57,798 bases of DNA from Patescibacteria group bacterium (GTDB taxonomy: Bacteria; Patescibacteriota; Microgenomatia; UBA8517): the NCBI GenBank assembly GCA_041742135.1, contig JBGSJG010000004.1, forward strand, positions 111,975 to 169,772, in the 5' to 3' direction. This document shows, one piece after another, positions 3,820 through 49,596 of the stretch; the first letter of the stretch is position 1, and each line of letters begins with the position of its first letter. The notes under the pieces are model-generated. The model was not told the DNA's origin, did no database searches, and worked only from the letters and a program-made list of their open reading frames with translations. A program made the position numbers and the translations under genes.

Positions 3820-3842
3820 AATTTAAAGGGAGGTGATTTAAT

Positions 3843-19879: not shown

Positions 19880-20097
19880 TGGCAGAAAGAGGACCAGACT
19901 TCGGTATTGAACATTTTATTTCTCCCGACGCCACAAATGAGGTTGTTTCCTGCTGGGGAGATGTAAAAAGACAATGGGCTAGGCCAGTTGTGCTCGGGTG
20001 CGTGGAAGCACCTGAAGGCTATACTGATGAAATGCTAGCAAACATCGGGCGCGCCCTCATTCTTCTTGACCAGATTGATAAAATGGAAAGAGAATAG
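19879..20097 (+). CDS. Hypothetical small protein
   Basis: 72 aa with an ATG overlapping the previous stop (TAATG). Confidence 0.45.
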   Translation: MAERGPDFGIEHFISPDATNEVVSCWGDVKRQWARPVVLGCVEAPEGYTDEMLANIGRALILLDQIDKMERE

Positions 20098-20190
20098 CTA
20101 ATTGCCTAGTTAGCATTGTTCGATTGCTGATGGGATTTCTTCAGGAAATCGCCGTGGCGAATAAATGTACTGATTTAATATAATATCTTC

Positions 20191-22393: not shown

Positions 22394-22441
22394 AATTGGT
22401 CCCGGGATTGTATAAACTTCGGTTTATACTTCAAATCCACT

Positions 22442-23922
22442 TTTTTGAGGGTTTGATCCTGGCCCAGGGTAAACGCTGGCGGCGTGCTTTAGGCATGCAA
22501 GTAGAACGAGAAATCCCGCTTCGGCGGGATGGAAAGTTGCGAACGGCTGAGTAACACGTAGGCATCTACCTCTAAGTGAGGGATAGTCCACCGAAAGGTG
22601 GGGTAATACCGCATAACACCGAAAGGTCAAAGCGCTTAACTGCGCGCTAAGAGAGGAGCCTGCGCACCATCAGCTTGTTGGTGAGGTAATGGCTTACCAA
22701 GGCTATGACGGTTAGGGGACATGAGAGTGTGTACCCCCAGAGTGGGACTGAGACACGGCCCACACACCTACGGGTGGCAGCAACCGGGAATCGTGCGCAA
22801 TGGACGAAAGTCTGACGCCGCGACGCCGCGTGAAGGATGAAGGCCTTAGGGTTGTAAACTTCTTTTGCCACGTAAGAAACGACGTGGAGAATAAGCACCG
22901 GCTAACTTCGTGCCAGCAGCAGCGGTAATACGAAGGGTGTAAGCGTTGCCCGGATTTATTGGGCGTAAAGTGTTTCGTAGGCGTTTCGGCAAGTTGTTCT
23001 TTAAAGCCCTCGGCTCAACCGAGGAAAGGGGAATGATACTACCGGAATTGAAGAATGTTGGAGTTACTGGAACTATCGGTGTAGGGGTGAAATCCGTTGA
23101 TATCGATAGGAACTCCGAAGGCGAAGGCGAGTAACTAAGCATTTCTTGACGCTGAGGAACGAAAGCTAGGGGAGCGAAAGGGATTAGAGACCCCTGTAGT
23201 CCTAGCCGTAAACTTTGTCCGCTAGCTTGTCCCGATTTATCGGGGCGGGCGTAAGCTAACGCGTGAAGCGGACCGCCTGGGGAGTACGGTCGCAAGACTA
23301 AAACTCAAAGGAATTGACGGGGACCTGCACAACCAGTGGATTATGTGGTTTAATTCGAGACGAACCGAAGAACCTTACCCAGACTTGACATGCTACCGTT
23401 TAGGCACCTGGAAACAGGAGCCGATCTTAATTTATTAGGAAGGTAGCACAGGTGTTGCATGGCCGTCGTCAGCTCGTGCCGTGGGGTGTTCCCTTAAGTG
23501 GGGTAACGAGCGCAACCCCTGTCCTGATTTAAATATTATCAGGAGACTTTTCGATTTTCGTATCGGGAGGAAGCGGGGACGACGTCAGGTCAGCATGGCC
23601 CTTATGTCTGGGGCTACACACATAATACAATGGCATCGACAATGGGTTGCCAAGCCGTAAGGCGGAGCTAATCCCATAAAACGATGTCTCAGTGGGGATT
23701 GAGGGCTGCAATTCGCCCTCATGAACGCGGAATTGGTAGTAATCGGGAGTCAGCTAAATCCCGGTGAATACGTTCTCAGGTCTTGTACACACCGCCCATC
23801 AAGTTAGTAAAGTTGGGGGCACCCGAATGGCCGCTGAGCGGTCAGAAGGTGAAACCAGCGATAAGAATTAAGTTGTAACAAGGTATCCGTTCTGGAAGGA
23901 GCGGATGGATCACCTCCTTTCT
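22442..23922 (+). rRNA. rrs: 16S ribosomal RNA (~1.48 kb, no insertion seen)
   Basis: 5' GAGGGTTTGATCCTGGCCCAG..., an internal GTGCCAGCAGCAGCGGTAATAC, and 3' GGATCACCTCCTTTCT. Ends are approximate. Confidence 0.95.
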
Positions 23923-24075
23923 TGGAGTGATAAGTCCCGCTAATTACGGGAAATAACACCCGCAGTTTAAAGTCATGGTTTTCTGTTTCTGATTAGTAAT
24001 AGTCAAGAAAAAAACCAAACTCCTTCTTTTTCTGTTTTAGAATTCTAAACAGAAGGAGATTGTAGGGAAACCTTT

Positions 24076-24099
24076 CCAATCGCTGTCAGACTGTCAAAG
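24076..24099 (+). other. 16S processing-stem 3' arm
   Basis: See 22370-22393. Confidence 0.8.
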
Positions 24100-24122
24100 A
24101 CTATTTTTCTTCAAACCGTTTT

Positions 24123-25268
24123 TTGGTATACAATGAATCACCAATGGAGGATTCTGCCCAGAAGCGACCACAGTTTAGTGTTGAAGAAATGCCACCCGTA
24201 AACCCTGAAACCGTTGCACCGCCCGTGCCTGAAGTAGCACCGCAAGGCGCAGAACCAGTATCAGTTGAAACTATCCCTCAGTTTACGCCCCCTCCGCCAC
24301 CACCTGTACCCACACCAAACCCAATTGTGTCTGAAAGTCAGCCTGTAGTACCTCCAGCAGTTCATCAAGCCCACAAACCAAATGCTCTCAGAGCCTTATT
24401 CTTTTTAATTCCGGCTCTTCTTTTGGTGGCTACAATCTATTTTGTTGCCAAATTTACGGGAAATAATTATGTAATGCGAGAGCCAGCACCGATTGCAACT
24501 GCTACACCTGAACTTGTTCCAGCTTCGCCGACGCCACTGCCGACTGCTATTCCTGTACCCGTTAAGACATACATAAATTCTCAGATGTTTTTGCAAATTT
24601 CGATTCCCGAAAGCTACGAAGTGATGTCGGAAGATGGGGAATTTGTGAGTCTGGGAAAAAACGACACGGAACTATTGACCATATCAACCAATTTGGATGA
24701 CTACGACGAGGGAAACCAAGATCATTCCAAAGTGGGCGATTTTCTTTTTGTTACTTACGCAGAGACCGCAGAAGAAGAAGCTGAATTTAGTGCGATCGTC
24801 GAAAGCGTAATATTCTTGGTAGATACTTCCGACTGGGAAACTTTTGATAACACTACTTATAACTACATGATTAAATATCCTTCGGAATGGGAAATTACCA
24901 ATACTGAGAATAAAACTGGAAAAATTGGTGAGCGAACAGAGATAAGTAAAGACGCGACCAACAAGACCTTAAACAACCTTGTGATTCTCACACAGAGCAA
25001 TTTAAATAATGCTGCCTTTACCGCGAGCCAAATTGTTTCTTCTACAAGAACACTTTCTGGGTGGAAAGGAACGCCGAAAAACGAGCTTAAAAAAATTGGA
25101 GGAGGGGATGCACAAGTGATCCAAGGAGAGCTTGGAGGCAAGTGGCATGCATATGTGGTGATTTGGTACAAAAATACAGTAGTTCAGATGACTTGGGAGG
25201 ATACTGTGGCACGTCCCCAACAGCAAATCTTCGATAATATCCTGGCTTCATTTGAGTTTACAAATTAA
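24123..25268 (+). CDS. Pro-rich, single-TM anchored hypothetical protein
   Basis: Pro-rich N-terminus, a TM helix (LFFLIPALLLVATIYFVAKF), then a ~260-aa extracytoplasmic region. The start could instead be ATG 24144. Confidence 0.55.
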   Translation: MVYNESPMEDSAQKRPQFSVEEMPPVNPETVAPPVPEVAPQGAEPVSVETIPQFTPPPPPPVPTPNPIVSESQPVVPPAVHQAHKPNALRALFFLIPALLLVATIYFVAKFTGNNYVMREPAPIATATPELVPASPTPLPTAIPVPVKTYINSQMFLQISIPESYEVMSEDGEFVSLGKNDTELLTISTNLDDYDEGNQDHSKVGDFLFVTYAETAEEEAEFSAIVESVIFLVDTSDWETFDNTTYNYMIKYPSEWEITNTENKTGKIGERTEISKDATNKTLNNLVILTQSNLNNAAFTASQIVSSTRTLSGWKGTPKNELKKIGGGDAQVIQGELGGKWHAYVVIWYKNTVVQMTWEDTVARPQQQIFDNILASFEFTN

Positions 25269-25309
25269 TTGCTTGACCTAGGGCTTTAGGACTGTTATCT
25301 TAACTTTGT

Positions 25310-26080
25310 ATGACAGCTGAGGCAATTAATTTTACACCTACACCAGCTCCACCTCCTGAGGCACCAAGGCAAGATGTCAGATACGTCACTACACCTACGC
25401 TTGAAAGCCAGCTTGCTGTGCTTGGAATGACTCTTGGCCCCGAGCCAACTCCAACACCAGCCCCAGTTGAAACACCAGATGAACCAGATCCATACAGGGA
25501 AACGGACCAAGCGAATGTTCGCGCTATTGAGTCTCCAACAAATAATGAAGAATTTGGACTTCAAAACCCATTAATAATAGCTGTTGCAAAGCTTGATATC
25601 AGGTTAGCTCCTGATCTCACTTTTGTAGTTTTGGGAGGGTCAGACGGACCATTTGGTTTGGCATATAATGCAAGTTGCATCGTCGATCAGCTTGAAGATG
25701 AAGACGTTTTAGGCGACAGGCTAACACAAGACTTGCCACAACGCGATGGGTTATTTAGTTCCGGGCCCGGTTCTGTGAGGTCAGTTCAAGTTTGGCCAGT
25801 GGGAGTAAGAGTGGAGAGTGTGGAGGCAACAGTTTTAGCAAACGAAGTTCCATTGACGATAAATGGTCAAGATTTCAGGCTTCCGATATTGACAGCCCGT
25901 GGAGTTACTTTTAACGGGCAGTACACTGACTGTCCTACAGTAGGCGAGCGCTTTAGTGGGCAAATTGGTCAAGTTCTCAGTGGAGTCGATGCGGCCGCAA
26001 TCGGGGAGACTCTCGGTTCGGTTTTGGGGGATGCGTTCTCAGGTTTTCAAGAGGGTTTTGGTGAAGGCCGCAGTAATTAA
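25310..26080 (+). CDS. Hypothetical protein
   Basis: 256-aa ORF with a PT-rich N-terminus and no recognisable domain. Confidence 0.5.
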   Translation: MTAEAINFTPTPAPPPEAPRQDVRYVTTPTLESQLAVLGMTLGPEPTPTPAPVETPDEPDPYRETDQANVRAIESPTNNEEFGLQNPLIIAVAKLDIRLAPDLTFVVLGGSDGPFGLAYNASCIVDQLEDEDVLGDRLTQDLPQRDGLFSSGPGSVRSVQVWPVGVRVESVEATVLANEVPLTINGQDFRLPILTARGVTFNGQYTDCPTVGERFSGQIGQVLSGVDAAAIGETLGSVLGDAFSGFQEGFGEGRSN

Positions 26081-27219
26081 TCCTTAACCTTCTTGCTCCA
26101 TCTTTGTCTTGAAACTTCAAGCACAGTGTTTTTATTTTGGTTAGCATTTGCAGGAAGTGGTAACGTGTGAGCTAAAAATGGCCTTGTTGAGTGGCCGTCA
26201 ATCATAAGCTTCACCGCAATCTGGAAGTTCTCAAGATTTACCAAATCATTTTGCGAGAAAACCTCGGCATATTCTTTGTGAATAATCTGTGCGTCATCCG
26301 CGCCCACTCCAAAGCTGATTAAAGACCCGGCGTTTCCCAGAATTGCTTTTTGCACAGGATCGGGAATTTGGGCCATGTATTGGTTGGCAAGCATCAGGTT
26401 AAGCCTGTATTTTCGGGCCTCAGACAAAATTTTAATAAAGCTGTTGGTGGCAAAATTTTGAAACTCGTCCACAAAAAGGTGAAAATCGAGTCTTTGCTCC
26501 TCGGGCATATCCACTCTATGCATCGCAGCCAGCTGGAACTTGGTAATAAGCGTGGCCCCAAGTAGCGCCGCGTTGTCTTCCCCAAGTCTACCTTGTGACA
26601 AGTTGGCTAAAAATATCATCTTTTTATCCATCACTTCGGAAAGTGAGATTGTGCTTTTGGGCTGGCTGATAATTGATCTGATCATGGGCGAAGTTACAAA
26701 CTGGCCGACTTTGTTCTGAATTGGCGAGATGGCTTCAGCTTGCAGGGACTCAGGCATTTGGTTAAACTCTCGAAGCCAAAACTGCTTTAAGGTTTCGTCG
26801 TGCATTTTTTCAACTACCTTTTTGCGGTAGCCTTCGTCGCCCAAGATGCTTAAGACATCGGCAAGAGTTGAGCCTTCTATCTCAGTCAAAGTTAGGAGTG
26901 AATTTCGAAGGATATACTCCATACGCGCGCTCCAGACATTGGCCCATACTTTGGTAAATATCGACATGAGGCCACTGACTACAAGCTCGGCTTCCTCTTT
27001 GGTGGTGACTTCCAAGGGGTTAATAATAACCGGGTAGTCTCGGTCCGCGGGGTTAAAATAAATCGTGTCATTAATGCGATTTTTGGGAATGTAATTAAGC
27101 ACTGTCTCGCAAAGGTCACCATGAGGATCAATTACGGCAACTCCTCGGCCTTTTTTAAGATCATCAATAACCATGTTGGCGATAAGGGTTGATTTTCCAG
27201 TTCCAGTTTTTCCTACCAC
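26077..27219 (-). CDS. P-loop ATPase, type IV secretion coupling-protein/HerA-like (C-terminal half of a split gene)
   Basis: Walker A VVGKTGTGKST at the extreme N-terminus, IDPHGDL, Walker B LFVDEFQNF, and ARKYRLNLMLANQY. Confidence 0.75.
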   Translation of the reverse strand: MVGKTGTGKSTLIANMVIDDLKKGRGVAVIDPHGDLCETVLNYIPKNRINDTIYFNPADRDYPVIINPLEVTTKEEAELVVSGLMSIFTKVWANVWSARMEYILRNSLLTLTEIEGSTLADVLSILGDEGYRKKVVEKMHDETLKQFWLREFNQMPESLQAEAISPIQNKVGQFVTSPMIRSIISQPKSTISLSEVMDKKMIFLANLSQGRLGEDNAALLGATLITKFQLAAMHRVDMPEEQRLDFHLFVDEFQNFATNSFIKILSEARKYRLNLMLANQYMAQIPDPVQKAILGNAGSLISFGVGADDAQIIHKEYAEVFSQNDLVNLENFQIAVKLMIDGHSTRPFLAHTLPLPANANQNKNTVLEVSRQRWSKKVKD

Positions 27220-27267
27220 CCAAACGTGGCGCCTGCGATCTTTATCCTTAATGCCAAAAGTAGCGTC

Positions 27268-28209
27268 TTAATTTTTGTGCTGTGCTCGGCCAAAAAAGTT
27301 AACTCGCTCGCGTTCATCCTCGTCCATTCCTAAAGACACTGGTAAGTTTTCTGGAGTTTCGGACAAAACTGCATTGCCCCAAGAAATGGATGGAACTTTT
27401 ATTTTCTCCCCGGGCAAATGCCAAAGCGTGGCAATTTCGTGAATATTTAAAATATCGTTTGTGTCTACACGCCGCAAAACTAAACTTTCAAAGGAGTGGT
27501 CTCGGGCCAAAAACTTTTTGCCACGGGTAGAAAGTGCGTTGCCATCTGTTTTATTAAATACACCAAAGGCGCTGGTCAAGTCTGATAAGAGCGCGCCGTT
27601 GGTTGAAGCGATTCGGATGGAAACTCCAAAGCCGGGGAAGCTAATTTTTTCTTTAATAATTCCGGCATCGGGAAGAGGGGATACATTGCCTTCGCGGTCC
27701 TTTATGCCTCGCTCAAGCATTTTTTGGGTGTTGGTTTGCCAACTGCCAGAAATTGCGGTGAGAGCAAATTGAACAACTGCAAATTCTTCGGCCGTGGACT
27801 TGGACATAACAGAAAGAATTGAAGAAAGCGGGTCACTGTCAACAAAAGTTGAATAAGTTGCCAGTGGATAATAATTGCCGCGGGCAAGTTTTAAAGCTCG
27901 AACGGGAATGGGGTTTGTGATGGGGTCTGCCACCTTCTGGCTTAAGACAAGCGGATAGTTGGATTGTAGTTGTGCTTCAACAAAAGGAGCCAGATCGCTA
28001 CTTGTGGTTACAGCAAAGTGAATTTGCTGATTTATTAAATATATTTCAAGGGCTAAAGGGTCTGGCCGTTGGCCAGACATTCTGTCCCAAAAAGAAATCG
28101 TGTTTATTTGCGTTAATGCTGAAAGAAAAGTTTGAGCCGCCTCAGGAGTGTACTCATTGCCACGAGGAACTTTGATTAGTAGAGTAGTAAGCTCGGCCAT
28201 TGGCTTCAT
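27268..28209 (-). CDS. N-terminal half of the split T4CP/HerA-like ATPase
   Basis: It ends ...GRAQHKN-TAA in the same frame as, and 16 sense codons upstream of, the GTG of 26077-27219. Confidence 0.6.
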   Translation of the reverse strand: MKPMAELTTLLIKVPRGNEYTPEAAQTFLSALTQINTISFWDRMSGQRPDPLALEIYLINQQIHFAVTTSSDLAPFVEAQLQSNYPLVLSQKVADPITNPIPVRALKLARGNYYPLATYSTFVDSDPLSSILSVMSKSTAEEFAVVQFALTAISGSWQTNTQKMLERGIKDREGNVSPLPDAGIIKEKISFPGFGVSIRIASTNGALLSDLTSAFGVFNKTDGNALSTRGKKFLARDHSFESLVLRRVDTNDILNIHEIATLWHLPGEKIKVPSISWGNAVLSETPENLPVSLGMDEDERERVNFFGRAQHKN

Positions 28210-28222
28210 TGTAGCAGAAAGA

Positions 28223-28780
28223 TCACAAACCAGACTGGCTATCGTAAATTGGATTTTGTTGCATTTGTTGCAAAAGAATGGCTTTAAGCTCCTCAGCTTT
28301 CGCTTTTTTGAGCCCCGGGATGCTTAGCTTGTTTTCCAGCGCTCCGATAAATTCTAAGTCTCTTCTTTTGCCTCCTCGAGTTGTTGTAAGAGCGGTGTCG
28401 CGGCCGCCAGAAGCGTTTTCGATTAATATTGTAGCGATTCCAAAGATACGATCCAGAAAATCCTGTGAAATTAAAATATTTTGAATCACTCCATAACGAA
28501 TGTATTTGCGTTGCTTACTTAAAACACCCTGATAAATGGTGATAGTGTCTGGGCCTAAAGTGAAGTGGAAGTTAATCTTTGAAAGAATGGGGAATACTAC
28601 GACGAATATAAGAAAAAGCGGGAAAATGAGTGTGTACCAAGATATATAAATTTGGCCATATCGTATACCGAGTAAAAAATAAACAATAATCCACGGAATC
28701 TTTTTTAGGATGAGTTTGGCTATCCAAGAAGTCGTGATTGGAAAATCCTTATCACTGGCTAGCTGCATGGTACTCATCAT
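28223..28780 (-). CDS. bPH_2 (YdbS/YdbT-like, membrane-flanked PH domain) protein
   Basis: Two N-terminal TM helices, then YIRYGVIQNILISQDFLDRIFGIATILIENASGG. Confidence 0.75.
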   Translation of the reverse strand: MMSTMQLASDKDFPITTSWIAKLILKKIPWIIVYFLLGIRYGQIYISWYTLIFPLFLIFVVVFPILSKINFHFTLGPDTITIYQGVLSKQRKYIRYGVIQNILISQDFLDRIFGIATILIENASGGRDTALTTTRGGKRRDLEFIGALENKLSIPGLKKAKAEELKAILLQQMQQNPIYDSQSGL

Positions 28781-29318
28781 TTCTCTTGATTGTTTTGGAT
28801 CTTACTTTGGCCAAAAGCTCATCCCTCAGGCCTTCTGCTGCAGCTTTTTCCACCCCGTCAATGTGAGCTGCCATGCCGGAAGTGAAAGTGGCGCTTGAAA
28901 GGTGAACATCGTAAAGCCCAAAAATTCTGTCAAAAATATCCTGATCCACATAAACATCTTGAACGCGCTCGTAGGGGATTGTAATTTCTTTTGGAGTTAT
29001 TGGTCCTTTTTTAATTACGATGTAATCCGTCGAGAGCTCGTAATAATAAACCGCAAAGTACCATCTTTGGTAAAAATATGTAATTAAAACACTTAAGCTA
29101 ACGATGAAGAAAATAACCCCAAAAAACGTTCCCGCTCCAAAAGGAAGCTGGCCTGGATCTAGTGACGCAAATAGGGGAATAAATATTATGAGTGAAAACA
29201 AAAAAAGCAGAGAATAGCCAATAGACCCTGAAATAGTCTTCTTGATTATTTTACTGTAACTAAGGGGGAATTTTTCGCGTGTTGGGCTTGTGGCGATTTG
29301 CATAATAAAATTATACAC
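28752..29318 (-). CDS. bPH_2 (YdbS/YdbT-like) protein, tandem paralogue
   Basis: Two TM helices, then IPYERVQDVYVDQDIFDRIFGLYDVHLSSAT. Overlaps the downstream paralogue by 29 nt. Confidence 0.75.
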   Translation of the reverse strand: MYNFIMQIATSPTREKFPLSYSKIIKKTISGSIGYSLLFLFSLIIFIPLFASLDPGQLPFGAGTFFGVIFFIVSLSVLITYFYQRWYFAVYYYELSTDYIVIKKGPITPKEITIPYERVQDVYVDQDIFDRIFGLYDVHLSSATFTSGMAAHIDGVEKAAAEGLRDELLAKVRSKTIKRNDEYHAASQ

Positions 29319-29368
29319 CTATCGTAAATTTACTTCTTAGCCTCAGTGTGTTAACATTTTCGTACTTC

Positions 29369-29388
29369 GGGTGCGTGGCTCAGTGGTA
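29369..29388 (+). pseudogene. Orphan copy of the first 20 nt of tRNA-Ile
   Basis: gggtgcgtggctcagtggta is identical to 29427-29446. It is followed by unrelated sequence containing the hairpin cacttc...gaagtg, with no T arm. Confidence 0.7.
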
Positions 29389-29426
29389 AGCAAAGCTTGG
29401 CCACTTCGCTCATCTGAATGAAGTGA

Positions 29427-29501
29427 GGGTGCGTGGCTCAGTGGTAGAGCGCTTTCCTGATAAGAAAGAGGTCCCTGGTTCGATCCCAGGCGCACCCACC
29501 A
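29427..29501 (+). tRNA. tRNA-Ile (anticodon GAU), CCA encoded
   Basis: Acceptor GGGTGCG/CGCACCC, anticodon stem CTTTC/GAAAG with loop CTGATAA, T arm CCTGG-TTCGATC-CCAGG, then ACCA. Confidence 0.9.
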
Positions 29502-29580
29502 GGACCTTCTGATGGTCAAAGATGCAGTTGACCACTATGCTTTACTGTTTGCTAAGATATTTTTACTCCTGTCCAGGAAT

Positions 29581-29769
29581 ATGTCGTATCAAAACTTCTG
29601 TGATATTTGCGGCAAGAAAATTGAGAAAGATTATGATAAGCCAACGTGGGTGGATGTTTCGCTTCGATGGCCTGGGAAAAGTCTCGATGTTTGCATTAAA
29701 TGTTGGGGTGATAAGAAAAAATGGGCAAGGATACAAGCTTTTGAAACTAGCAATACTAGTGTAAAATAG
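29581..29769 (+). CDS. Small CxxC...CxxC zinc-ribbon-like protein
   Basis: MSYQNFCDICGKK...DVCIKCWG, 62 aa from the internal ATG. Confidence 0.4.
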   Translation: MSYQNFCDICGKKIEKDYDKPTWVDVSLRWPGKSLDVCIKCWGDKKKWARIQAFETSNTSVK

Positions 29770-29773
29770 CACC

Positions 29774-29998
29774 ATGCCACAAACAGTAACTATAGATAAA
29801 AAAACCGCTGAAAGTTTGATTGATGCCATATTATCTTTGAAAAAAGAAATTGCGCTTTTACGCCAGAGCCGGGAAGCTCAATATGGCTCTATGGAATGGT
29901 GGCACAAAAGCACTAAGCAGGGTTTAAAAGATATTGAAAATGGGGATTATGAAGCCTTTGGCAACGTAGAAGACCTTATTAAAAGCTTGCATGAATGA
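29774..29998 (+). CDS. Type II antitoxin (partner of the RelE/ParE-like toxin)
   Basis: 74 aa, with a 4-nt ATGA overlap onto the toxin gene. Confidence 0.6.
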   Translation: MPQTVTIDKKTAESLIDAILSLKKEIALLRQSREAQYGSMEWWHKSTKQGLKDIENGDYEAFGNVEDLIKSLHE

Positions 29999-30255
29999 AA
30001 CCTGTCTATTCCAAAGAATTCAAGAAAAAATATAAAAAGCTTCCAGCATCGGCAAAAAAGCAGGTAGATAAGCAAATCAGATTTATTTTTATAGATTTTA
30101 GGCACCCCTCTTTGAAGTCCAGAAAGATGAGTGGATATAAAGACGTGTATGAAGCCAGAGTCAGTAAAGGTTATAGATTAAGGTATCGAGTACAAAAGGA
30201 AATTGTATCGCTTCTCACAGTTGGCCCTCACGATGAAGGATTGGGAAAAAAGTAA
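29995..30255 (+). CDS. RelE/ParE-superfamily toxin
   Basis: 86 aa. The pattern K..KKL......I...I..HP......K.SGYKDVYEARVSKGYRLRY......I.LL.VGPHD matches RelE/ParE. Confidence 0.7.
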   Translation: MKPVYSKEFKKKYKKLPASAKKQVDKQIRFIFIDFRHPSLKSRKMSGYKDVYEARVSKGYRLRYRVQKEIVSLLTVGPHDEGLGKK

Positions 30256-30265
30256 ACCACAAAAA

Positions 30266-30291
30266 CCCCCCCGTTTTACCGGGGGGGTTTT
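30266..30291 (+). terminator. Intrinsic terminator after the TA module
   Basis: C7 (30266-72) pairs with G7 (30281-87) and is followed by TTTT. Confidence 0.75.
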
Positions 30292-30380
30292 CTTATCTAA
30301 TAGTACTTCTGTCGTGTAATTCTTATATCGAGTATCTCTTGGCTCGAGTATTAAATAGATATTATTTAAGAATCAAATTT

Positions 30381-30443
30381 AGTGTTTCGTTCCTCGCCAA
30401 TTACGGCGAAGAGACTCATCAGTCCCGCTAAGCGGGAGACACT
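30381..30443 (-). ncRNA. Hammerhead ribozyme, type III topology
   Basis: The minus strand reads AGUGUC|UCCCGC-UUA-GCGGGA-CUGAUGA-GUCUCUUCGCC-GUAAUU-GGCGAGGAAC-GAA-ACACU. The full conserved core, a GUC cleavage triplet and three helices are all in the correct register. Confidence 0.8.
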
Positions 30444-31040
30444 GAAGGCACTGCACGCGAGAAACTGAATTGGAAAGGGGGGGATAAAATAGAATCGTCA
30501 TTGGACGAAACTAAACCTTTTTCCAACCGCTCGCTGCAGTTAGTAGGCTTGAAAACGCATTGTTTTCCGGCCTTACTGCATTGTGCAGTGGGAGACTAAG
30601 TAAATAGTCTCAGGTCTAGCCAGTAAACTCATAGAGAGTTCACTTTCTAAGTATCTCCTCATTCCAATCAGTTCTCGCATGCAGGGGTTGGTCGCCAGTG
30701 GCGACCCACCTCATTCCCCAAGGGGAATGACCTACCAAGCCTCACGCTGCCCGGTCCTCATCTTCCCAGCTTCTGGAAAGAGAGAAACGAGTTTTGCGAA
30801 ACTCGGCAGACTTGCAAGCGAAAAACCGCTTTTTGTTAACCAACCATTGTGATTAGACCTTTTTGGAAATCCTTGAGGGATTTGGTCTAAATGGTTAACA
30901 AAGTGTTAAAGCTAGCCTATTGTCCGTTGTCTTGGAACACCCCTTTATGGATGGGTTGGCTAGTGAAAGTCAAACAATCACCTCATGGTCCCGACGGGAC
31001 GACCTTTCCGCAGAGCGGCAAGGCATGAGGTGCAAAACAG
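30444..31040. ncRNA. Large, densely structured non-coding region of unknown class
   Basis: ~600 nt without an ORF, carrying at least 12 perfect or near-perfect hairpins plus a ~33-bp long-range helix (30451-30486 with 30652-30684). Polarity is unresolved. Confidence 0.4.
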
Positions 31041-31042
31041 AG

Positions 31043-32956
31043 TTACTGGTTCAAGCCAGTCAGCAAGCTGACGAAAGCTTGAAGCTCGGCGACAGCCCAA
31101 TCAGGCCGCTGTAACTCAGGACGTACCAGAGTATGAGCCGAAAAACTTGGCTCTTCCTGCGGCTGACCTGAAGTCGCCAGTAATTGCAATTGCGTCTCGC
31201 GCGTCCGCGTTGGTGTGCCGAGGAAATAATTGGTTGCGAATATTTCGCCACCAGCCTCGAACACTACAGTCCGATCACAGTACCATGTGGGGTTTTCGAC
31301 GTCGCTGTCGATGTTGACCAGATAGGTAAACCTACCTTGGTCAAAGACCCACAAGTTACCATCTGTAACGTACGCAACAGCGCCGTTACGCGATATTGCT
31401 GGTTGGCTTGCGCCTCCCAGGGTAGCGGGCCAGTCTGGCGATTCAACGACTAAAATCGTGTCGTTGGTAGCCGTTTGAACCGTATAAGCGGTTATGTCGT
31501 TCTGAACCTGAGGCTCAGTAGACATGCCGCCTTCGGCTGGCTGGATGTCGCGGACTGCGCCGGTTTCAAGGTTTATCACCTTGATTCGACCGTCTTGGAC
31601 ATAGCCGATTTCTAGGTTGTTCACCCAGAATGGCTGAATTGCATTGGCGATAGTTCTCGTTAAAGAACCACCGTCGTGTGTGGCTTTGACGCCCCAAACT
31701 CCCTCTGTTGAGAGGAACTCGTAGGCGACATCGCCCTGATCGTTCACCGCCGGATTGCGGTAGAGCCCTGCTGTTGGTGTGACGACCCAGCTATTCGCCA
31801 GATCCTCAAACCTTGCCATTCGGATCTCCCAAAGGAGTCCGACCTGCCGCGCGAACGCGACGTATTCACCCGAAGGTGAAAGTGATGGATCGATGTCGAC
31901 GTTGTCCGTAGTCGCCCACGAGCTGACCGCGCGATTGCCGCTAGTCAAGATTCGTAGTTGAACTTCGTTGTCGACCCGACGCAGGTAAACAGATGGCTCC
32001 GTACAATAGACCGGAGCGGGGGGCGGAGGTTCAGGCATAGCCTCGAACCAACAATCGTACACCGGCATGCCGCCCTGCACAGTCCATGTTGCATACATGG
32101 TTGAGCCAGCAATTTCTCGCTGAATCGTTTGACCTTGATCAAACCATGTACCGTGGCGGAAAGGACCGACGTAGCCTTGGCGGACGCCCATATATGTCCA
32201 AACCCGGAGGGTGTGGCCATCTACGACGTATTCGCCGTCAGCGAACTGAGCGTGTTCGAGACCGCGCGCCGGACATGTAACTGTCGGCAAAGTCTCGGTT
32301 GGCCCCTGCGGTTGCTGTGTCGGCGGAATGACCGTCGGCGTTTCGGTCGGCGGTTGCACCGTCGGGGTACTACTGGGCTCGACCGTGGGTGTAAACGTCT
32401 CCGTTGGAGGAGTCGTTTCCGTTGGTGTTGCACTGGGCTCGACCGTACTGGTCGGGCTTGGCGTGTTCGTGCTGGTTGGCACAAACGTGTTCGTTGCCGT
32501 TGGCGGAATCTCCACCAAATTCATGGAAATCGTACCAACAATCGACGCGACTTCGTCGGGGCCTAGGACCACAAATATCGTGATCGTATTGCCCAAAGTC
32601 AGTCGACCTTGTATTGGAGTTTCCTTGCCGGAATACTCCTCAACATTTAGCGCCCAGATCTCTCCTCCATCGCTTCTTCCCACTACGTGGGTGTTTTCGT
32701 GTTCCGAACCAGGATCGTTAATGACCAATCCTGAGATGTCGAACTCACGACCGACAAGGTCACTAGGAACTTGGTAGTTCCCAATGACGTGTTCTGATCC
32801 TTCTTGGCCACGCGGCCAAGGAGGACCACCACCGATCGAGAACGAAATTTCCGTCCCCGTTGCTCCTACCGGCGCCAAATGCAGCCCGGTGCCACAGAAT
32901 AGGACTGCGCCTATTACTGCGGCGAGCAGTACGAACAAAATGTACCGATTGCGCAT
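31043..32956 (-). CDS. Secreted protein: signal peptide, PT-rich linker, TolB/PD40-like beta-propeller
   Basis: GGAGG 5 nt before ATG 32956 (MRNRYILFVLLAAVIGAVLF). PTxTPTxxP linker. PSLSPSGEYVAF and PAISRNGAVAY are PD40-like repeats. GC-rich. Confidence 0.7.
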   Translation of the reverse strand: MRNRYILFVLLAAVIGAVLFCGTGLHLAPVGATGTEISFSIGGGPPWPRGQEGSEHVIGNYQVPSDLVGREFDISGLVINDPGSEHENTHVVGRSDGGEIWALNVEEYSGKETPIQGRLTLGNTITIFVVLGPDEVASIVGTISMNLVEIPPTATNTFVPTSTNTPSPTSTVEPSATPTETTPPTETFTPTVEPSSTPTVQPPTETPTVIPPTQQPQGPTETLPTVTCPARGLEHAQFADGEYVVDGHTLRVWTYMGVRQGYVGPFRHGTWFDQGQTIQREIAGSTMYATWTVQGGMPVYDCWFEAMPEPPPPAPVYCTEPSVYLRRVDNEVQLRILTSGNRAVSSWATTDNVDIDPSLSPSGEYVAFARQVGLLWEIRMARFEDLANSWVVTPTAGLYRNPAVNDQGDVAYEFLSTEGVWGVKATHDGGSLTRTIANAIQPFWVNNLEIGYVQDGRIKVINLETGAVRDIQPAEGGMSTEPQVQNDITAYTVQTATNDTILVVESPDWPATLGGASQPAISRNGAVAYVTDGNLWVFDQGRFTYLVNIDSDVENPTWYCDRTVVFEAGGEIFATNYFLGTPTRTRETQLQLLATSGQPQEEPSFSAHTLVRPELQRPDWAVAELQAFVSLLTGLNQ

Positions 32957-33621
32957 GATTACCTCCTCACGCGCTAAAAAAAACGAATGCCACACAGGCA
33001 CTCCACTACGCTCTTGCGAGTTTCGAGGAGTACAGCACTACCAACTGTCCCACCGGTGGGATCAAACAGCCGGCAATGCTTTTCTCCGAAGAGATCCTGT
33101 ATGGCAAGGAAAGGACAACTATTAACCTTTGCTTAATTCATAACCCCAAAAATAAAAATTACGGATTATTCAAATTAAGAAGATTTTATTAATTCATCCT
33201 CTCTTTGCCACACAGGAAAGTCCCACTTAATTGGGATTAAAAACATGCCGTGTTTATCCACGGTTTGACTTTCTTTCTTTAAAAATTTCGCTTGCTTGTC
33301 AATGTACGAGTCAAATAGTTTCAAAAATCCCACTCGCTTCGAACGGGTTTTAATTTCTTTGACTTACTGCTCTGGAAACTCATGTTCCAGAAGGGGAGGG
33401 TCGACCAATAGATCCACCGGCCCCTCCTCTGAAACCTGAAAATCGAGTATCTGTCTGAATTCGAGAATTACTTAAATCGTTAATTATATTTGATTCACCC
33501 TCGATCGTTATATAGAAGATTAAAGAAGGATTGATTTGTAACTGGCACTATATACCATAGAGTGATAATTGTCAAGCGCCGCAGGCGTCCTGAGTATGTC
33601 GAAGGATGATAAAATCAAGAT

Positions 33622-34769
33622 ATGCCGCGTCTTGTAGTAATTACTTTTGCTAGAGCTGGCTTGGGCCACTTGCGCGTAGCTAATGCAATTATTGAAAGCG
33701 TTCCAGCAGGCACTGAAACTGTCTTTTTTAGCACGACCGACCGAGCTACCTCATTTTTTCATAGGCTAAGCTCAATTAACCCCGTTATGCGCTACTTGGC
33801 TGAGGCCATGCAGCACGGACTACTTGAAGCTGTTTTCACGCTTTTATACACAGCCTCAATCCGAGCTCGGGCTGGTCGCCTTCTGCCTCAAATTGAGGCG
33901 GTAGTTAATCAGCAAAAAGTGAGGCCAACCGAGCTCGTTTTTATCTCAACTCATTTTGGGCTGGCCCACCAGCTCAGCGAGCTTGGAATGTGGCCGGGGC
34001 GGATCTAACAATAGTGCCTAGCCGGCTTACTAAACTTCGCCTTGGTGCCCCTAACTCCAAAGTTGTCCATTACCCACTTAGTCTTAAACTGGGAAAGTAT
34101 TTGGCAGCGGACAAGTTTTCTTACCGCCAAAAACAACTAGATCCAGCGAGTCGGGCTAAGGTAAAAATAAGCCTGCCGGTTTCGGGAGCCGCAGTAGGGT
34201 TACGGTTTTATGAAGAAATATCCGAGCGGCTAAATAGTTTGGAATCAAGATTTACGTTTTATATAACTTCGCGGGATTCTGACTTTACCAAAATATTTCT
34301 GGCGAAAATGGCAAAACGCCCGTATGCAAAAATTCACGCCTTCGAGCATGACCGGCAGGTGGTAGCAAGCTATGATCGGACGATTCGCACAAACACCATC
34401 GCCCTTGAGATTACCAAGCCTTCTGAACAGGCTTTCAAAGCATTGTATTCTCCTCGGCAAGTTGGTGGCGTGGTTCTACTGTTTACGCGGCCAATCGGAA
34501 GGCAAGAGCAGGATAACTTGTGGTACTTGGGGCGAAATGGTTTGATTCCGTCGAGAGAGGATCAGGCGGCTCTTTGGCGGCATGAGCTCGGAGTTATCGC
34601 AAAAGCTAAAAATTGGCGAGGGCTTCGCCTGCCGAGTGAGCCTAAAAAAGCTGCAAAGTTTATCAACTGGTGTTTGGAGACTGGAGTTTTTTCTAGCATG
34701 CTTAGCTACACTGCAAAAGCAAAAAGTAGTGGAGTGACGAAGCTTTGGGATTATGTAGATAAATTATAA
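33622..34769 (+). pseudogene. MGDG-synthase/GT28-like glycosyltransferase interrupted by a frameshift near 33990
   Basis: N-terminal ARAGLGHLRVANAI (GxGH) in ORF 33622-34008. The protein continues in the -1 frame from 33990 (ADLTIVPSRLTKL...). The combined length of ~385 aa is typical for this family. Confidence 0.45.
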
Positions 34770-34771
34770 AT

Positions 34772-35866
34772 ATGGCTGAAGACAAAGCTTTGAGTAGAAG
34801 GGATTTTTTGAAGCTAAGTGGGGCAGCAACTGCCCATGCAGCGCTTACTTTAACTGGAGTTGCAGCAGTTGCTGAATCCTTTCAGGTTCAGCCGGAAAGT
34901 ATTGCTCAGCGGGTTGAAAATATGCCACTTTCAGAGCTCGAGGCTTTAGTTTACGAAAAAACTCCCGTGGTGCCTGATATTGCCGAAATTTCGGAACGAC
35001 TTCAGGGGATTGCTCGGATTGAGCCTGGAGGTAAACTCATGAAAGCAGGTTCTTCTGTGGCCCAAGGGATGCTTAAAAGCGCTTTTGGTGAAGACGCTGA
35101 GGTTAATCTGGGGCGGGAACAAGGTGTTTTCGATGAAGTGCAAAGATACTTTCATTTTCCGGAAGGCGCCATTGAGGCGGCTAGTGTGGTTGGTTCGGAT
35201 ATGGACACCCTTTTGTACGAGTCTATGTATTGCCGCGGCCCGATGCCGTGCCCTCCCAATACTAGCGTAATAGATGCATATATAGACTACTACCATCCTT
35301 GGGTATCAATTAATTTTGTAGGTAGCAACTTGGTGCGTAGAGATGTGCCCTTTGAAGTTTTTGAAGGATTTGTCGAAACTTATATTAATCACTTTGTGCA
35401 CAAAGGGGTCATCCCTATAATGACGACTTTTCCACATCCTAGAAGTTCTGAACACGAGCCTTATAACACTTGGTTTAATGATCCTCAACCGATTGGCGGA
35501 AGAGGTATGACAAAGGAGGAGGAAGCTACCGAGCAAATTGAATACAGAAGCTCTATGCTTCCTGAAAACGCTCTCAAATACAATGCGATTTTGATTGAGG
35601 TTGCAAAAAAGTATCAAGTTCCGATAATTAACCTCCAAAGAGGCGTAGTCGAATCTGCCGCAAATAATGGTACTTGGCTAGCAATGCCCCCTCGAATGCC
35701 GGAAATTGATCCTGAACATTTTTCTCATTCTATTGGTGAAGCTAGGTCAACTTTGACCTTGCCGCCGACTGGAGGTCGGTTTGAAAATGGTGAACAGGCG
35801 GTGAGTTACTTTACGCTTTTGACCTTGAGTGAGCTGATCCGGGCCCAAGCTAGCGTCGTTGACTAA
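34772..35866 (+). CDS. Tat-exported hypothetical protein
   Basis: Canonical twin-arginine signal LSRRDFLKLSGAATAHAAL. Confidence 0.65.
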   Translation: MAEDKALSRRDFLKLSGAATAHAALTLTGVAAVAESFQVQPESIAQRVENMPLSELEALVYEKTPVVPDIAEISERLQGIARIEPGGKLMKAGSSVAQGMLKSAFGEDAEVNLGREQGVFDEVQRYFHFPEGAIEAASVVGSDMDTLLYESMYCRGPMPCPPNTSVIDAYIDYYHPWVSINFVGSNLVRRDVPFEVFEGFVETYINHFVHKGVIPIMTTFPHPRSSEHEPYNTWFNDPQPIGGRGMTKEEEATEQIEYRSSMLPENALKYNAILIEVAKKYQVPIINLQRGVVESAANNGTWLAMPPRMPEIDPEHFSHSIGEARSTLTLPPTGGRFENGEQAVSYFTLLTLSELIRAQASVVD

Positions 35867-35993
35867 TTAATTTCACTGCTATATAATACGCTTACCCAAA
35901 TTTATTGGGGGCTAAGTTCGGAAACTTAATGAGAATCATATATCTGTTCAAATTAAATAAGCGCACATAGCGTGCGTGAACCTCAGATAGTTT

Positions 35994-36019
35994 AACCGAG
36001 CTTACGGCTCGGTTTTTTT
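35994..36019 (+). terminator. Intrinsic terminator
   Basis: aaccgagc-ttac-ggctcggtt followed by T7. Confidence 0.75.
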
Positions 36020-36096
36020 GTACCTTAAATATAAGGGAGTTTGGGCCCATAAGAACCTGCTCACGCAGAACCTTGTGGCCCCGAATGATTACATTC

Positions 36097-36170
36097 GGGC
36101 CCATAGCTCAGTTGGCTAGAGCGCGTCATTTGCAATGACGAGGTCAAGGGTTCGAGCCCCTTTGGGTCCA
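36097..36170 (+). tRNA. tRNA-Ala (anticodon UGC)
   Basis: Acceptor GGGCCCA/TGGGTCC with the G3:U70 identity pair, anticodon stem CGTCA/TGACG with loop TTTGCAA, T loop TTCGAGC. Confidence 0.9.
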
Positions 36171-36233
36171 CATTTAATTGAAAGATTAGAGTTTGTAAAA
36201 ACAAGTTTTACAGATTTTAATTTTTTAATTAAA

Positions 36234-36260
36234 GTCTTGTACTTTAACAACTGGAAGAAA
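36234..36260 (+). other. 23S processing-stem 5' arm (pairs with 39675-39700)
   Basis: gtcttgtactttaacaactggaagaaa is complementary to tttcttccagttattaagtacaagac, with a small internal loop. Confidence 0.7.
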
Positions 36261-36323
36261 GGTGATTCCGTATATGCCTCCTAAGGGTTGGCATGTCCGT
36301 CCCGCTTCGGCGGGATTGTACGG

Positions 36324-39656
<3,333 letters not shown>

Positions 39657-39720
39657 TCGTATAATGAAACATTATTTCTTCCAGTTATTAAGTACAAGAC
39701 AAAGTTGGACCTTAAAATTG

Positions 39721-39837
39721 TCTCGGTGATTTAGGCGTCGTCGAACTACCTAATACATTCCGAACTTAGAAGTAAAAGGCGACTGCGGGGACGATAGTTG
39801 TCCGGCAACGGACCGCGAAAATACCTCATTGCCGGGG
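39721..39837 (+). rRNA. rrf: 5S ribosomal RNA
   Basis: CCGAACTTAGAAGT loop-B/helix-III block. The terminal helix TCTCGGTGA/TTGCCGGGG closes with G.U pairs. Confidence 0.85.
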
Positions 39838-43119: not shown

Positions 43120-43227
43120 TTATCCACAATTTTTAGGTGACCCGAATTTAATAAGTAGATTAAACTCATTTTTTTATTTAGCATTTACTATAAGATATTG
43201 CGAATTGGATTTGTCGTATTATAGGAT

Positions 43228-43256
43228 TTGACAGAGGATATTGGCGGTGTTATATT
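43228..43256 (+). promoter_or_regulatory. Consensus-like sigma70 promoter in the radA-LPXTG intergenic region
   Basis: TTGACA (43228-33), a 17-nt spacer, TATATT (43251-56). Confidence 0.5.
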
Positions 43257-43261
43257 CAAGA

Positions 43262-43340
43262 TGCATAAAAAAAAGAGCATCACTATCGATTGTTTTTCTC
43301 GCGTAACGAGAAAACTCCACGAATAGCAATGCTCTTTTTA
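43262..43340 (+). ncRNA. Candidate ~80-nt small RNA (promoter plus nested hairpin plus T-run)
   Basis: The outer stem aaaaagagcat/atgctcttttt (43270-80 / 43329-39) encloses the hairpin ttttctcg-cgtaa-cgagaaaa. It could equally be a bidirectional terminator. Confidence 0.3.
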
Positions 43341-43442
43341 GAAAAATCATTAATTATCTCAAAGACAGGCAAACTGAGATAATAAATGTAAGTCTAAGAC
43401 TAGCCATGTGTACCATGGTTTGTCAAGAGGTGTCTTTGGTTT

Positions 43443-43499
43443 GTGCCTTAAAGGGACGGGTGGTATGTAGGGCAGGCGTACTACCCGTTCCTTTAGGGC
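43443..43499 (+). other. 20-bp RNA hairpin with three G.U pairs (plus-strand specific)
   Basis: tgccttaaagggacgggtgg pairs with ctacccgttcctttagggca. All 3 non-Watson-Crick positions are G.U on the plus strand and would be A.C on the minus strand. Confidence 0.5.
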
Positions 43500-43567
43500 A
43501 TAGTTATTCTTCTTTACAAAATCTGCTCGTGTGATATACTATCCAATTTCCTACAGAAGGTAGATTT

Positions 43568-44140
43568 ATGAAAACAACAATCAGTTTACTAACAATATCA
43601 GTAGTAAGTTTACTTTTAAGCGGCAGTGTGTCCGCTCAATCAAGCGGAGGCACTTGGTCTCAGTGTGTTGATGGCCGAGCAATTGCTCGATGCGAAACTT
43701 ACAACTGTCCTCAAGGTGACACCAACGATGATGGTAAATGTACTCTGAGCGATACAAACGCCAGACTCACAGATTCCAGAAATGATTCTTTTTGTGCAAA
43801 CCCAATTTCTGGCTGTGGTCAGGTAATTTACTATCCAAGTGGCTCAAGCGCTTCATGCTTGGAGCGGCCTGAAGAAGCTGGGCTTAACTGTGATTTGTAC
43901 GCGGTCGCAGAGCCGAACTTTACGCCGGGAGCAACATCCACACCAAGAGCGACGGCAAGCGCCACACCTACAGCACGCCCTACAGCAACAGCCTCAGCAA
44001 CTCCAAAGTCTGGAATTGGCGGAGCAGGGGGAGACAACGAGCTACCTAAAACCGGGCCTGAAGATTATCTTCCAGTATTTGCAGTTCTTTCTTTGGGGGC
44101 ACTCGGAATCTTTCTCTACGAAAAATATAAAGTAGTTTAA
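43568..44140 (+). CDS. Secreted Cys-rich protein with an LPXTG cell-wall sorting signal
   Basis: Signal peptide, then C-terminal LPKTG, a hydrophobic helix and a KYK tail. Confidence 0.85.
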   Translation: MKTTISLLTISVVSLLLSGSVSAQSSGGTWSQCVDGRAIARCETYNCPQGDTNDDGKCTLSDTNARLTDSRNDSFCANPISGCGQVIYYPSGSSASCLERPEEAGLNCDLYAVAEPNFTPGATSTPRATASATPTARPTATASATPKSGIGGAGGDNELPKTGPEDYLPVFAVLSLGALGIFLYEKYKVV

Positions 44141-48921: not shown

Positions 48922-48948
48922 TGCACCATCATTCTAGCAAATCGAAGC

Positions 48949-49110
48949 TTAATCTTCCTTGGTCTCGTCCGTGTCTTTGGCTGATTTTTTAAATTCACGA
49001 ACAGCCTCTCCAAGACCTTTAAAGAATTCCGGAATTTTTTTACCACCGAATAAAAGAAGTATTATGAGGCCAACAACTAGAAGTTCAGTTGTTCCGATTG
49101 ATTGCAACAT
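48949..49110 (-). CDS. tatA: Twin-arginine translocase subunit TatA/E (53 aa, below the ORF-track cutoff)
   Basis: My own translation: [53 protein letters not shown]. Confidence 0.8.
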
Positions 49111-49112
49111 GG

Positions 49113-49328
49113 TTAATCAGACGCCTTTTTCTCAGATGTGTCGTCGCTTACAGTTTCTGAAACAGCATCAGTAAATGTCTTTTTAACCTGCTTTATTTCT
49201 TTGAGTGTTTCGCCGCTTGTACGAGCCAAGCGAGTAACAACTTTGCTACCAAAAAACAAAACCAAGATCAAAGCAATAATGATCATCTCGGTCGGACCAA
49301 TATTTTTAATAAAATTAAGTATTTGCAT
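49113..49328 (-). CDS. tatA: Twin-arginine translocase subunit TatA/E, second paralogue
   Basis: [36 protein letters not shown] fits the TatA hinge and amphipathic helix. Confidence 0.75.
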
Positions 49329-49376
49329 CTGGTGACATATTACAACTCCGAAAAATAAAATACAATAGGTAATGTG

Positions 49377-49577
49377 TTACTCCTCCACCATTTGAGCGCT
49401 AAACCAAGCGGCTCCATCCCAATATTCCAAGCTTTTTGTATCTGAGTTAAAACCAAATCTGCCTCGCTTGGCTGTTTTTGGTCGCTTTGAACTCGTCCAG
49501 GTTTCAATTGCGGGCAAGCCAGCCATTAACGAAAGACCATGCCCAATGTCTACGAGTAACTGATTGTGGTTCGACAT
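49377..49577 (-). CDS. 66-aa protein homologous to the C-terminal module of the giant protein
   Basis: IETWTSSKRPKTAKRGRFGFNSDTKSLEYWDGAAW aligns with [35 protein letters not shown] (about 20 of 38 identical). Confidence 0.65.
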   Translation of the reverse strand: MSNHNQLLVDIGHGLSLMAGLPAIETWTSSKRPKTAKRGRFGFNSDTKSLEYWDGAAWFSAQMVEE

Positions 49578-49596
49578 AAATCACTGCCATTATAAC

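Follow-up and report, generated by a model that had tools for sequence, protein, structure and literature searches.

A putative oversized, structured 3′ untranslated region ahead of a hammerhead ribozyme in a Patescibacteria bacterium

INTRODUCTION

In a 57,798-nt stretch of contig JBGSJG010000004.1 from a Patescibacteria group bacterium (hereafter the window, meaning the whole stretch of DNA analysed), a region of 597 nt (30444–31040) that is crowded with hairpins lies between a protein gene, hereafter the propeller gene, and a hammerhead ribozyme. What is this region, and what could so much structure be for? The initial annotation likened it to the large orphan RNAs GOLLD, ROOL, OLE and HEARO. 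Here we argue that the region is most likely not a giant orphan RNA like GOLLD or ROOL, and that an enlarged, structured 3′ untranslated region (UTR) fits the evidence better than an ornate RNA with tertiary structure. Specifically, we propose, with a probability of about one half, that the propeller mRNA ends in this region, an oversized and structured 3′ UTR whose end is set by hammerhead cleavage and shielded by helices.

RESULTS

A hammerhead ribozyme and a terminator follow the propeller gene

The hammerhead that had been noticed beside the region is genuine and, like the propeller gene, is encoded on the minus strand. It is a type III hammerhead at 30379–30445 (Rfam RF00008, 33.1 bits, E = 5e-5 locally and 0.0027 window-wide) with a complete core, comprising CUGAUGA (30422–30416) and GAAA (30388–30385), in which A30385 pairs with U30439 (A15.1–U16.1). 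Stem I, UCCCG(C)/(G)CGGGA, and stem II, 10 bp with one bulge, are both loop-closed, and stem III, 5 bp between 30439–30443 and 30381–30385, is open. From this core, self-cleavage is predicted at GUC↓U, between 30438 and 30437 of the minus strand. No second ribozyme, as would be needed upstream for a circular RNA, is found at E ≤ 1 in 31000–33700.

The propeller gene itself (31043–32956, minus strand, 637 codons) starts with the ATG at 32956 after GAGGAGG. Its product is a secreted protein in which a PT-rich linker connects an N-terminal signal or transmembrane helix to an all-beta domain at the C-terminus. In an AlphaFold2 model, this domain reaches predicted local distance difference test scores of 70–87 over approximately residues 360–570, and its top Foldseek matches are TolB (E = 8e-9); the model, which is of medium confidence, suggests a TolB-like beta-propeller. 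The protein has no Pfam match and no PDB sequence match. The GC content of the gene is 0.55, compared with approximately 0.43 in its surroundings.

The best promoter in 29900–33700 is a σ70-type element, TTGACA-17-TATAGT, at 33547–33575 on the minus strand, which agrees with the consensus at 11 of 12 positions and would place the transcription start near 33540. The 5′ UTR of ~580 nt that would result (32957–33540, minus strand) is structured, with a minus-strand z of −7.41 for 33002–33621, where z compares the minimum free energy (MFE) with that of dinucleotide shuffles. A terminator-like hairpin followed by U8 (33003–32985, minus strand) is positioned directly upstream of the ribosome-binding site (RBS). 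The leader has no Rfam match; it might act as an attenuator or represent a leader RNA of a new type.

At the other end of the gene, 605 nt separate the stop codon from the predicted cleavage site (30438–31042, minus strand), and ~85 nt of AT-rich sequence separates the hammerhead from an intrinsic terminator at 30259–30295. The terminator, CCCCCCCG-TTTTAC-CGGGGGGG, forms a G7/C7 hairpin with flanking T/A runs, to which terminator-type Rfam leader models align. It is bidirectional, and is common to the propeller unit and the convergent ParE operon. The position of the hammerhead, on the strand of the gene, 605 nt past its stop and ahead of a terminator, together with a promoter that is conserved in homologues, argues for a 3′ UTR.

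The stretch between stop codon and ribozyme is structured beyond chance

With an MFE of −254.0 kcal/mol, the minus strand of the region (z −11.52) folds better than the plus strand (−239.4 kcal/mol, z −9.21), and none of 100 dinucleotide shuffles is as stable, so the structure that the initial annotation had suspected goes beyond chance. Four perfect local hairpins with a stem of at least 7 bp are present, compared with 0.37 expected, and only two of 1000 shuffles attain four. When the whole window is scanned in 200-nt steps, similarly strong z values on both strands are found for the rRNAs, some tRNAs, the propeller transcription unit itself and 43201–43600; elsewhere, a few isolated strong values occur on single strands.

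The array is composed of four elements, all given here for the minus strand. Nearest to the stop codon, the folds show a three-way element (30979–31032), in which a 9-bp stem, CACCUCAUG/CAUGAGGUG, encloses two hairpins. It is followed by a composite long hairpin (30832–30902) of 11 + 7 + 6 bp that contains no G·U pairs, and by a run of local hairpins (30686–30831) comprising 30816–30831, the composite 30731–30810, whose fold differs between strands, 30711–30730 and 30686–30710. The last element is a multibranch domain (30451–30684), closed by the interrupted helix of ~33 bp (30451–30486 with 30652–30684) that had been described from the outset. The 3′ strand of this closing helix stops 13 nt short of the cleavage site. 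Among the further stems, those at 30592–30611, 30690–30706, 30711–30730 and 30788–30805 are confirmed in the sequence. All stems that had been listed earlier are present, and only the description of one of them as exact needs correction: cttcccag/ctggaaag (30762–30780) contains one C·A on the plus strand, which is a G·U on the minus strand.

Helices common to the folds of both strands contain nine G·U pairs on the minus strand and eight on the plus strand and, as had been recognized, the non-Watson–Crick positions do not assign a strand. The stems of the local hairpins are mostly Watson–Crick only. Within the locus, the evidence on polarity is confined to two features, the sense-strand excess of structure in the coding sequence (CDS) and the more stable minus-strand fold of the UTR. 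Neither strand has GNRA or UNCG loops, and triloops, as read from the fold, are frequent. Two motifs in loops and linkers, CAAUG and AUGAGG, occur four times each in the region, not above shuffles, and no short motif is enriched.

The coding content of the region is slight. The longest open reading frames (ORFs) that overlap it encode 64, 57 and 45 aa, in line with the earlier statement that none exceeds 64 aa, and the longest (30920–31114, plus strand) extends into the propeller CDS. The region might nevertheless be a decayed coding sequence or hold an unannotated small gene, and small ORFs do occur past the hammerhead in two homologous loci described below (70 aa in L001 and 53 aa in L008). 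However, none of the ORFs in the region has a Pfam match at E ≤ 1, a Shine–Dalgarno-like (SD-like) motif precedes just two marginal ORFs (25 and 45 aa), and tblastx, by which the initial annotation had proposed to recognize a decayed gene, detects no translated similarity to 208 fetched loci. Moreover, a z of approximately −10 is not expected of a decayed CDS. We regard a coding origin as extremely improbable.

Gene, structured spacer and hammerhead recur together in homologous loci

The propeller family is tiny: of 1.84 billion cluster representatives, seven match at E < 1e-10. Scans for the family in genome and metagenome contigs reveal no relative. Queried with the C-terminal 328 aa, a word-indexed protein index gives no match, yet full-length and exhaustive searches recover P0001 at ~1e-103; negatives from that index therefore need caution.

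A type III hammerhead is located downstream of the propeller gene, on the sense strand, in six of the seven assessable loci, namely the window, L001, L004, L005, L006 and L008. The remaining locus, L002, carries only a degenerate hammerhead relic, and L003, whose contig ends 216 nt past the stop, was left out of this count. In L001, the gene stops at 3265 and the hammerhead occupies 3456–3507, with a spacer of 198 nt between stop and cleavage site (z −5.1); the corresponding values are 2117 and 2294–2348 in L004 (184 nt, z −6.5), 7055 and 7212–7273 in L006 (164 nt, z −7.1; hammerhead 48.2 bits), and 2881 and 3029–3083 in L008 (155 nt, z −3.4). In L005, the hammerhead, identified by eye and by parser, lies ~330 nt past the stop (spacer 327 nt, z −13.2). 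The spacer of the window, 605 nt, has a z of −9.4.

The six spacers (155–605 nt) have no alignable sequence in common. All of them are strongly structured and end in a helix-closed domain a few nucleotides before the cut, 11–13 nt where counted. Stems I and III of the six hammerheads likewise differ in sequence and pair in every case. Upstream of the gene, the promoter is conserved in L001, L004 and L006 in both hexamers, spacer and start region, at ~410–540 nt before the start codon; judged from these sequences, long 5′ leaders appear to be a trait of the propeller family.

Excess RNA structure extends into the coding region

The structure of the CDS was assessed by synonymous-codon shuffling, with protein and codon usage held constant. 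All five 130-codon segments of the propeller CDS in the window have z values between −3.0 and −4.9, and the mean z of 100-codon segments is −3.3 on the sense strand versus −1.8 on the antisense strand. Six control genes of the window have mean z values of −1.1 to +0.8. The homologous propeller genes all have negative mean z values (seven of seven, −0.9 to −3.4). Thus leader, CDS, down to its synonymous sites, and tail all show excess structure, which points to selection for structure.

These results bear on the possibility that the hairpins are palindromes of the DNA, or arose non-adaptively, as remains of decayed mobile repeats or by a mutational process such as template switching, and have no function as RNA. 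Such an origin would agree with stems that are mostly Watson–Crick only, with the lack of a wobble bias between strands and with the lack of sequence conservation. It would also agree with the presence of a second ORF-free, hairpin-rich gap in the window, between radA and the next ORF (43120–43570), which has a plus-strand z of −6.9 and a perfect hairpin of ~28 bp and no Rfam match. However, two other long gaps, 19880–20190 and 48922–49596, are unstructured, and no hairpin of the region has a second copy in the 57.8-kb window, unlike repeats of the repetitive extragenic palindromic (REP) or miniature inverted-repeat transposable element (MITE) type, which we therefore reject. Above all, structure recurs in the spacers of six loci despite complete turnover of their sequence, and it reaches the synonymous sites of the CDS; selection on the transcript is therefore favoured, and an origin at the DNA level appears quite improbable.

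The region matches no known RNA family

A search of both strands of 30446–31040 with all Rfam 15 covariance models yields no match at E ≤ 10, and a search of the whole window at gathering threshold and E ≤ 0.05 reports nothing in the region besides the hammerhead. The search of all Rfam families that the initial annotation had proposed thus retrieves the ribozyme beside the region and no family within it. Its judgement that the region is not RNase P, tmRNA, SRP RNA, 6S RNA or a group I/II intron accords with this lack of a covariance-model match; among introns, the models retrieve only the group I intron of 23S (38431–38685).

The proposed collection of homologues by blastn and nhmmer is likewise empty. 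The 600 nt have no homologue in a phage database (blastn), in eight propeller loci (blastn, nhmmer and tblastx), in 128 loci that comprise these eight and 120 hammerhead-bearing loci, mostly from the candidate phyla radiation (CPR; 1.7 Mb in total), or in 80 RadA-anchored loci. A metagenome DNA-pattern scan gives ten stretches, nine of them without similarity and one with a 34-nt match at the hammerhead core. By RadA, the closest genomes are metagenome-assembled genomes (MAGs) of Patescibacteria, Microgenomates and Woesebacteria at 50–55% identity, and the organism is therefore a CPR bacterium without a close sequenced relative.

The region does share several traits with GOLLD, ROOL, OLE, HEARO and raiA: it is several hundred nucleotides long and ORF-free, it has many helices, and it lies near a tRNA in a mobile-looking neighbourhood. 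It differs from them in matching no model, in having no sequence or architecture conserved in its relatives, and in being physically the 3′ UTR of a gene. In contrast to GOLLD, ROOL, OLE and group I/II RNAs, it has no GNRA-type motifs, many triloops and local hairpin stems that are mostly Watson–Crick only. The resemblance proposed at the outset therefore finds no support, given that no Rfam model matches at E ≤ 10 and that the layout of gene, spacer and hammerhead is found elsewhere with unrelated spacers.

Hammerheads follow stable folds in other Patescibacteria

A DNA pattern derived from the hammerhead of the window detects two unrelated CPR hammerheads in genome contigs. A pattern formed from the core and stem II common to L004 and L008 (CTGANGAGTCCAAAAGGACGAAAC), scanned over one genome per species, lists more than 120 stretches, most of them labelled Patescibacteria or CPR and the remainder "bacterium" or other taxon names. 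The hammerhead variant CUGANGAGUCCAAAAGGACGAAAC occurs in more than 120 stretches (L009–L128), mainly from Patescibacteria MAGs, with several copies on some contigs. The figures on context given below rest on 169 hammerheads parsed from ~130 loci among the matches listed.

CPR hammerheads are generally co-directional with the flanking genes, and the sequence 5′ of them is more stably folded than controls. Specifically, when ORFs of 100 aa or more are considered, the upstream gene points the same way as the hammerhead in 61 cases and the opposite way in 27. Measured from the stop of the closest sense open frame upstream (60 codons or more), the cut follows after a median of 76 nt, compared with 123.5 nt in an antisense control, which is a weak control. 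Of the 169 hammerheads, 93 are followed on their own strand by an SD motif and a start codon, versus 43 in the antisense control. The 150 nt ahead of the cut have a mean z of −2.9, with 45% below −3, compared with a mean of −0.9 and 12% for controls. The 169 hammerheads have 113 distinct stem I and 58 distinct stem III sequences. Spacers of at least 580 nt account for ~3% of the listed CPR hammerheads, and the window is an extreme case. In L129, the order is gene, GC hairpin, hammerhead, RBS and gene, and it occurs twice.

Two further observations concern these hammerheads. A conserved motif resembling GUUCUUUGAAAA is positioned 6–10 nt past many of them, and in L129 it directly precedes the RBS. 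Pairs of hammerheads 540–770 nt apart flank single small ORFs (79–224 aa) in L079 (4078–4666), L074 (262–819), L023 (5104–5685) and L064 (1843–2639). In L079 and L074, the ribozyme sits within a longer direct repeat, which suggests that these pairs are duplicated or mobile single-gene cassettes.

In three loci, L044 (~7220–7633), L082 (~7200–7567, minus strand) and L060 (~3470–3939), a promoter of the TTGACA-17-TATACT type is followed by a structured, ORF-free or ORF-poor RNA of 360–470 nt, with z values of −8 to −10, that ends in a hammerhead and has no Rfam match. These units are candidate ribozyme-matured non-coding RNAs or leaders. By analogy, the region in the window could be a stand-alone large non-coding RNA, an orphan specific to its lineage, that is either split off the mRNA or transcribed from a weak internal promoter. 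The hammerhead would set its 3′ end, and it would have a function of its own, for example as a scaffold, a sponge or a protein partner. Its size, its extreme structure, the lack of an Rfam match and the precise, ribozyme-defined 3′ end would suit such an RNA, and a weak promoter candidate, TTGACT-17-CATAAA, is present at ~30975–30946 on the minus strand. However, no minus-strand promoter within the region reaches 9 of 12 positions. In addition, no homologue of the region is found in the searched collections, and neither the length nor the sequence of the spacer is conserved in homologous loci. The stems are near-perfect, with no GNRA or UNCG loops and no enriched motif. A stand-alone RNA is, in our view, unlikely.

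Genomic surroundings of the propeller unit

The propeller unit lies antisense within a split rRNA operon, in the order 16S, tRNA-Ile, propeller unit, tRNA-Ala, 23S, 5S. This placement raises the possibility that the array is a two-strand insulator between convergent units, which together with the terminator would halt polymerases arriving from the 16S/tRNA-Ile/ParE side and, because the gene is antisense inside the split operon, would limit sense–antisense duplexes. The structure is indeed nearly symmetric between strands (z −9.2 and −11.5; 8 and 9 G·U pairs on plus and minus), and the gene is positioned between tRNA-Ile and tRNA-Ala/23S, antisense to both. The propeller genes of L001 and L002 are similarly placed, adjoining tRNA-Ala/23S or tRNA-Ile. 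However, L006 and L008 show the layout of gene, spacer and hammerhead outside any rRNA operon, a strong terminator already parts the units in the window, and the structure signal of the CDS is stronger on the sense strand. We consider an insulator function improbable.

Several features of the neighbourhood are recorded here in their own right. The split operon spans 22441–39837, and ~12 kb of protein genes part 16S (22441–23920) from tRNA-Ala/23S/5S. Among the products of these genes are a ParE toxin, a TrwB/TraG-like coupling protein (26077–27219) and two bPH_2 proteins; tRNA-Ile lies in the middle of the stretch, and 23S holds a group I intron at 38431–38685. A copy of the 20 nt that begin tRNA-Ile(GAT) is found exactly 58 nt upstream of them (29369–29388 and 29427–29446), which may be the scar of an integration or rearrangement. 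An imperfect direct repeat of ~35 nt (30328–30362 and 33443–33478; minus strand AUUUAA..CUCGA..AGAUACUCGAU), seen by eye, flanks the 3.1-kb propeller unit; it was not recovered by a repeat tool, and a similar check in L001 was unconvincing. Farther away, 49597–56334 on the minus strand holds an ORF of 2245 aa, opposite an ORF of 1631 aa (50615–55510), with a GC skew of +0.37 and raised GC content. The product of the longer ORF is probably a giant repetitive surface protein.

DISCUSSION

The anatomy of the locus suggests the following sequence of events. Transcription of the minus strand would start from the promoter at 33575–33547, pass through the ~580-nt leader, the CDS (32956–31043), the 605-nt array and the hammerhead, and end at the bidirectional terminator, at ~30266–30287. 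The hammerhead would then cut after C30438 and detach a tail composed of ribozyme and terminator. The mRNA would retain a 2′,3′-cyclic phosphate end, 13 nt past the ~33-bp helix, preceded by a chain of ~14 stable helices. These helices could block 3′-to-5′ exonucleases and thereby give the mRNA a defined, long-lived 3′ end independent of the terminator. We infer both the cleavage in vivo and the stabilization of the mRNA by the helices from this arrangement.

Several points weigh against a hammerhead-trimmed, protective 3′ UTR. Cleavage and stabilization are both deduced. The score of the hammerhead, 33.1 bits, is below the RF00008 gathering score of 48.5; the score is lowered because stem II is long and bulged, and the catalytic core, the three-helix architecture and the covariation of stems that characterize the family are all found. 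A protective role does not account for a length of 605 nt, among the longest few percent of spacers: one or two hairpins would suffice for an exonuclease block, and relatives manage with 155–330 nt. Local hairpin stems that are mostly Watson–Crick only, and G·U counts that favour neither strand, would also fit selection at the DNA level or on both strands. The second hairpin-rich gap (43120–43570, z −6.9) suggests that the signal may in part be a habit of the genome, and the promoter-driven RNAs of L044, L082 and L060 that stand-alone RNAs of such a type may exist.

Protective 3′ structures have precedents. In operons of Escherichia coli, REP hairpins, and at the 3′ end of the Bacillus thuringiensis cry gene, the "positive retroregulator", are stem-loops that block 3′ exonucleases and prolong the half-life of mRNA. 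As in the window, these stable stem-loops are located at or near the 3′ end of the mRNA. They differ in comprising one or a few hairpins, repeated genome-wide in the case of REPs, and in lacking a ribozyme, whereas the window has 605 nt of unique helices and a predicted self-cleaved end. In eukaryotes, the ends of MALAT1 and MEN-beta are made by RNase P cleavage at a tRNA-like element and are shielded by a triple helix; without any homology, the likeness lies in an endonucleolytic cut just past a structured element that yields a non-canonical, protected 3′ end. RiboJ is an engineered ribozyme insulator placed 5′ of a gene. Here too, self-cleavage parts adjoining RNA segments and gives them defined ends, an arrangement to which the L129 hammerhead, directly before the next RBS, comes close; in the window, unlike with RiboJ, no gene follows the ribozyme.

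Bacterial hammerheads that flank genes in prophages have been described, and it has been proposed that they cut long transcripts down to mRNAs the length of single genes (Perreault et al. 2011, PMC3088659). Those hammerheads and the one described here are alike in catalytic core and three-stem junction, and both are intergenic and co-directional with a gene. In the window, however, a single hammerhead follows a hairpin array of 605 nt and closes a monocistronic unit, and it is tied to one chromosomal gene family of Patescibacteria rather than to the neighbourhood of prophage integrases. A full-text literature search pairing hammerhead and Patescibacteria returned no paper on such an arrangement. 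The locus is best filed as a hammerhead-processed bacterial transcript, of a kind already described, with an exceptionally large structured 3′ UTR.

A bolder reading is that the ~600 nt are a lineage-specific RNA with a function of its own, or that the ~3.1-kb transcript as a whole has a role at the RNA level beyond encoding the protein, for example as an unusually long-lived, nuclease-resistant or exported RNA, in an episymbiotic CPR bacterium. We consider this rather unlikely. If the region were an RNA with its own function, the RNAs of L044, L082 and L060 would fall into an as yet undescribed class of non-coding RNAs matured by ribozymes, and if the 600 nt were free-standing, they would represent a new class of large RNA with a ribozyme-made 3′ end.

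Hardly any bacterial hammerhead has a known biological role. The locus in the window, its homologues and the more than 120 Patescibacteria stretches offer an arrangement that can be tested: a stable fold directly 5′ of the cut, with the end of a gene shortly upstream in many loci and an RBS often 3′ of the ribozyme. If the proposed hammerhead-trimmed 3′ UTR is real, CPR bacteria would make structure-protected mRNA ends and punctuate their operons by self-cleaving ribozymes, a natural counterpart of engineered insulators. The 605-nt array would then be the extreme case, and would belong to a rare surface-protein gene with structure under selection along the full length of its mRNA.

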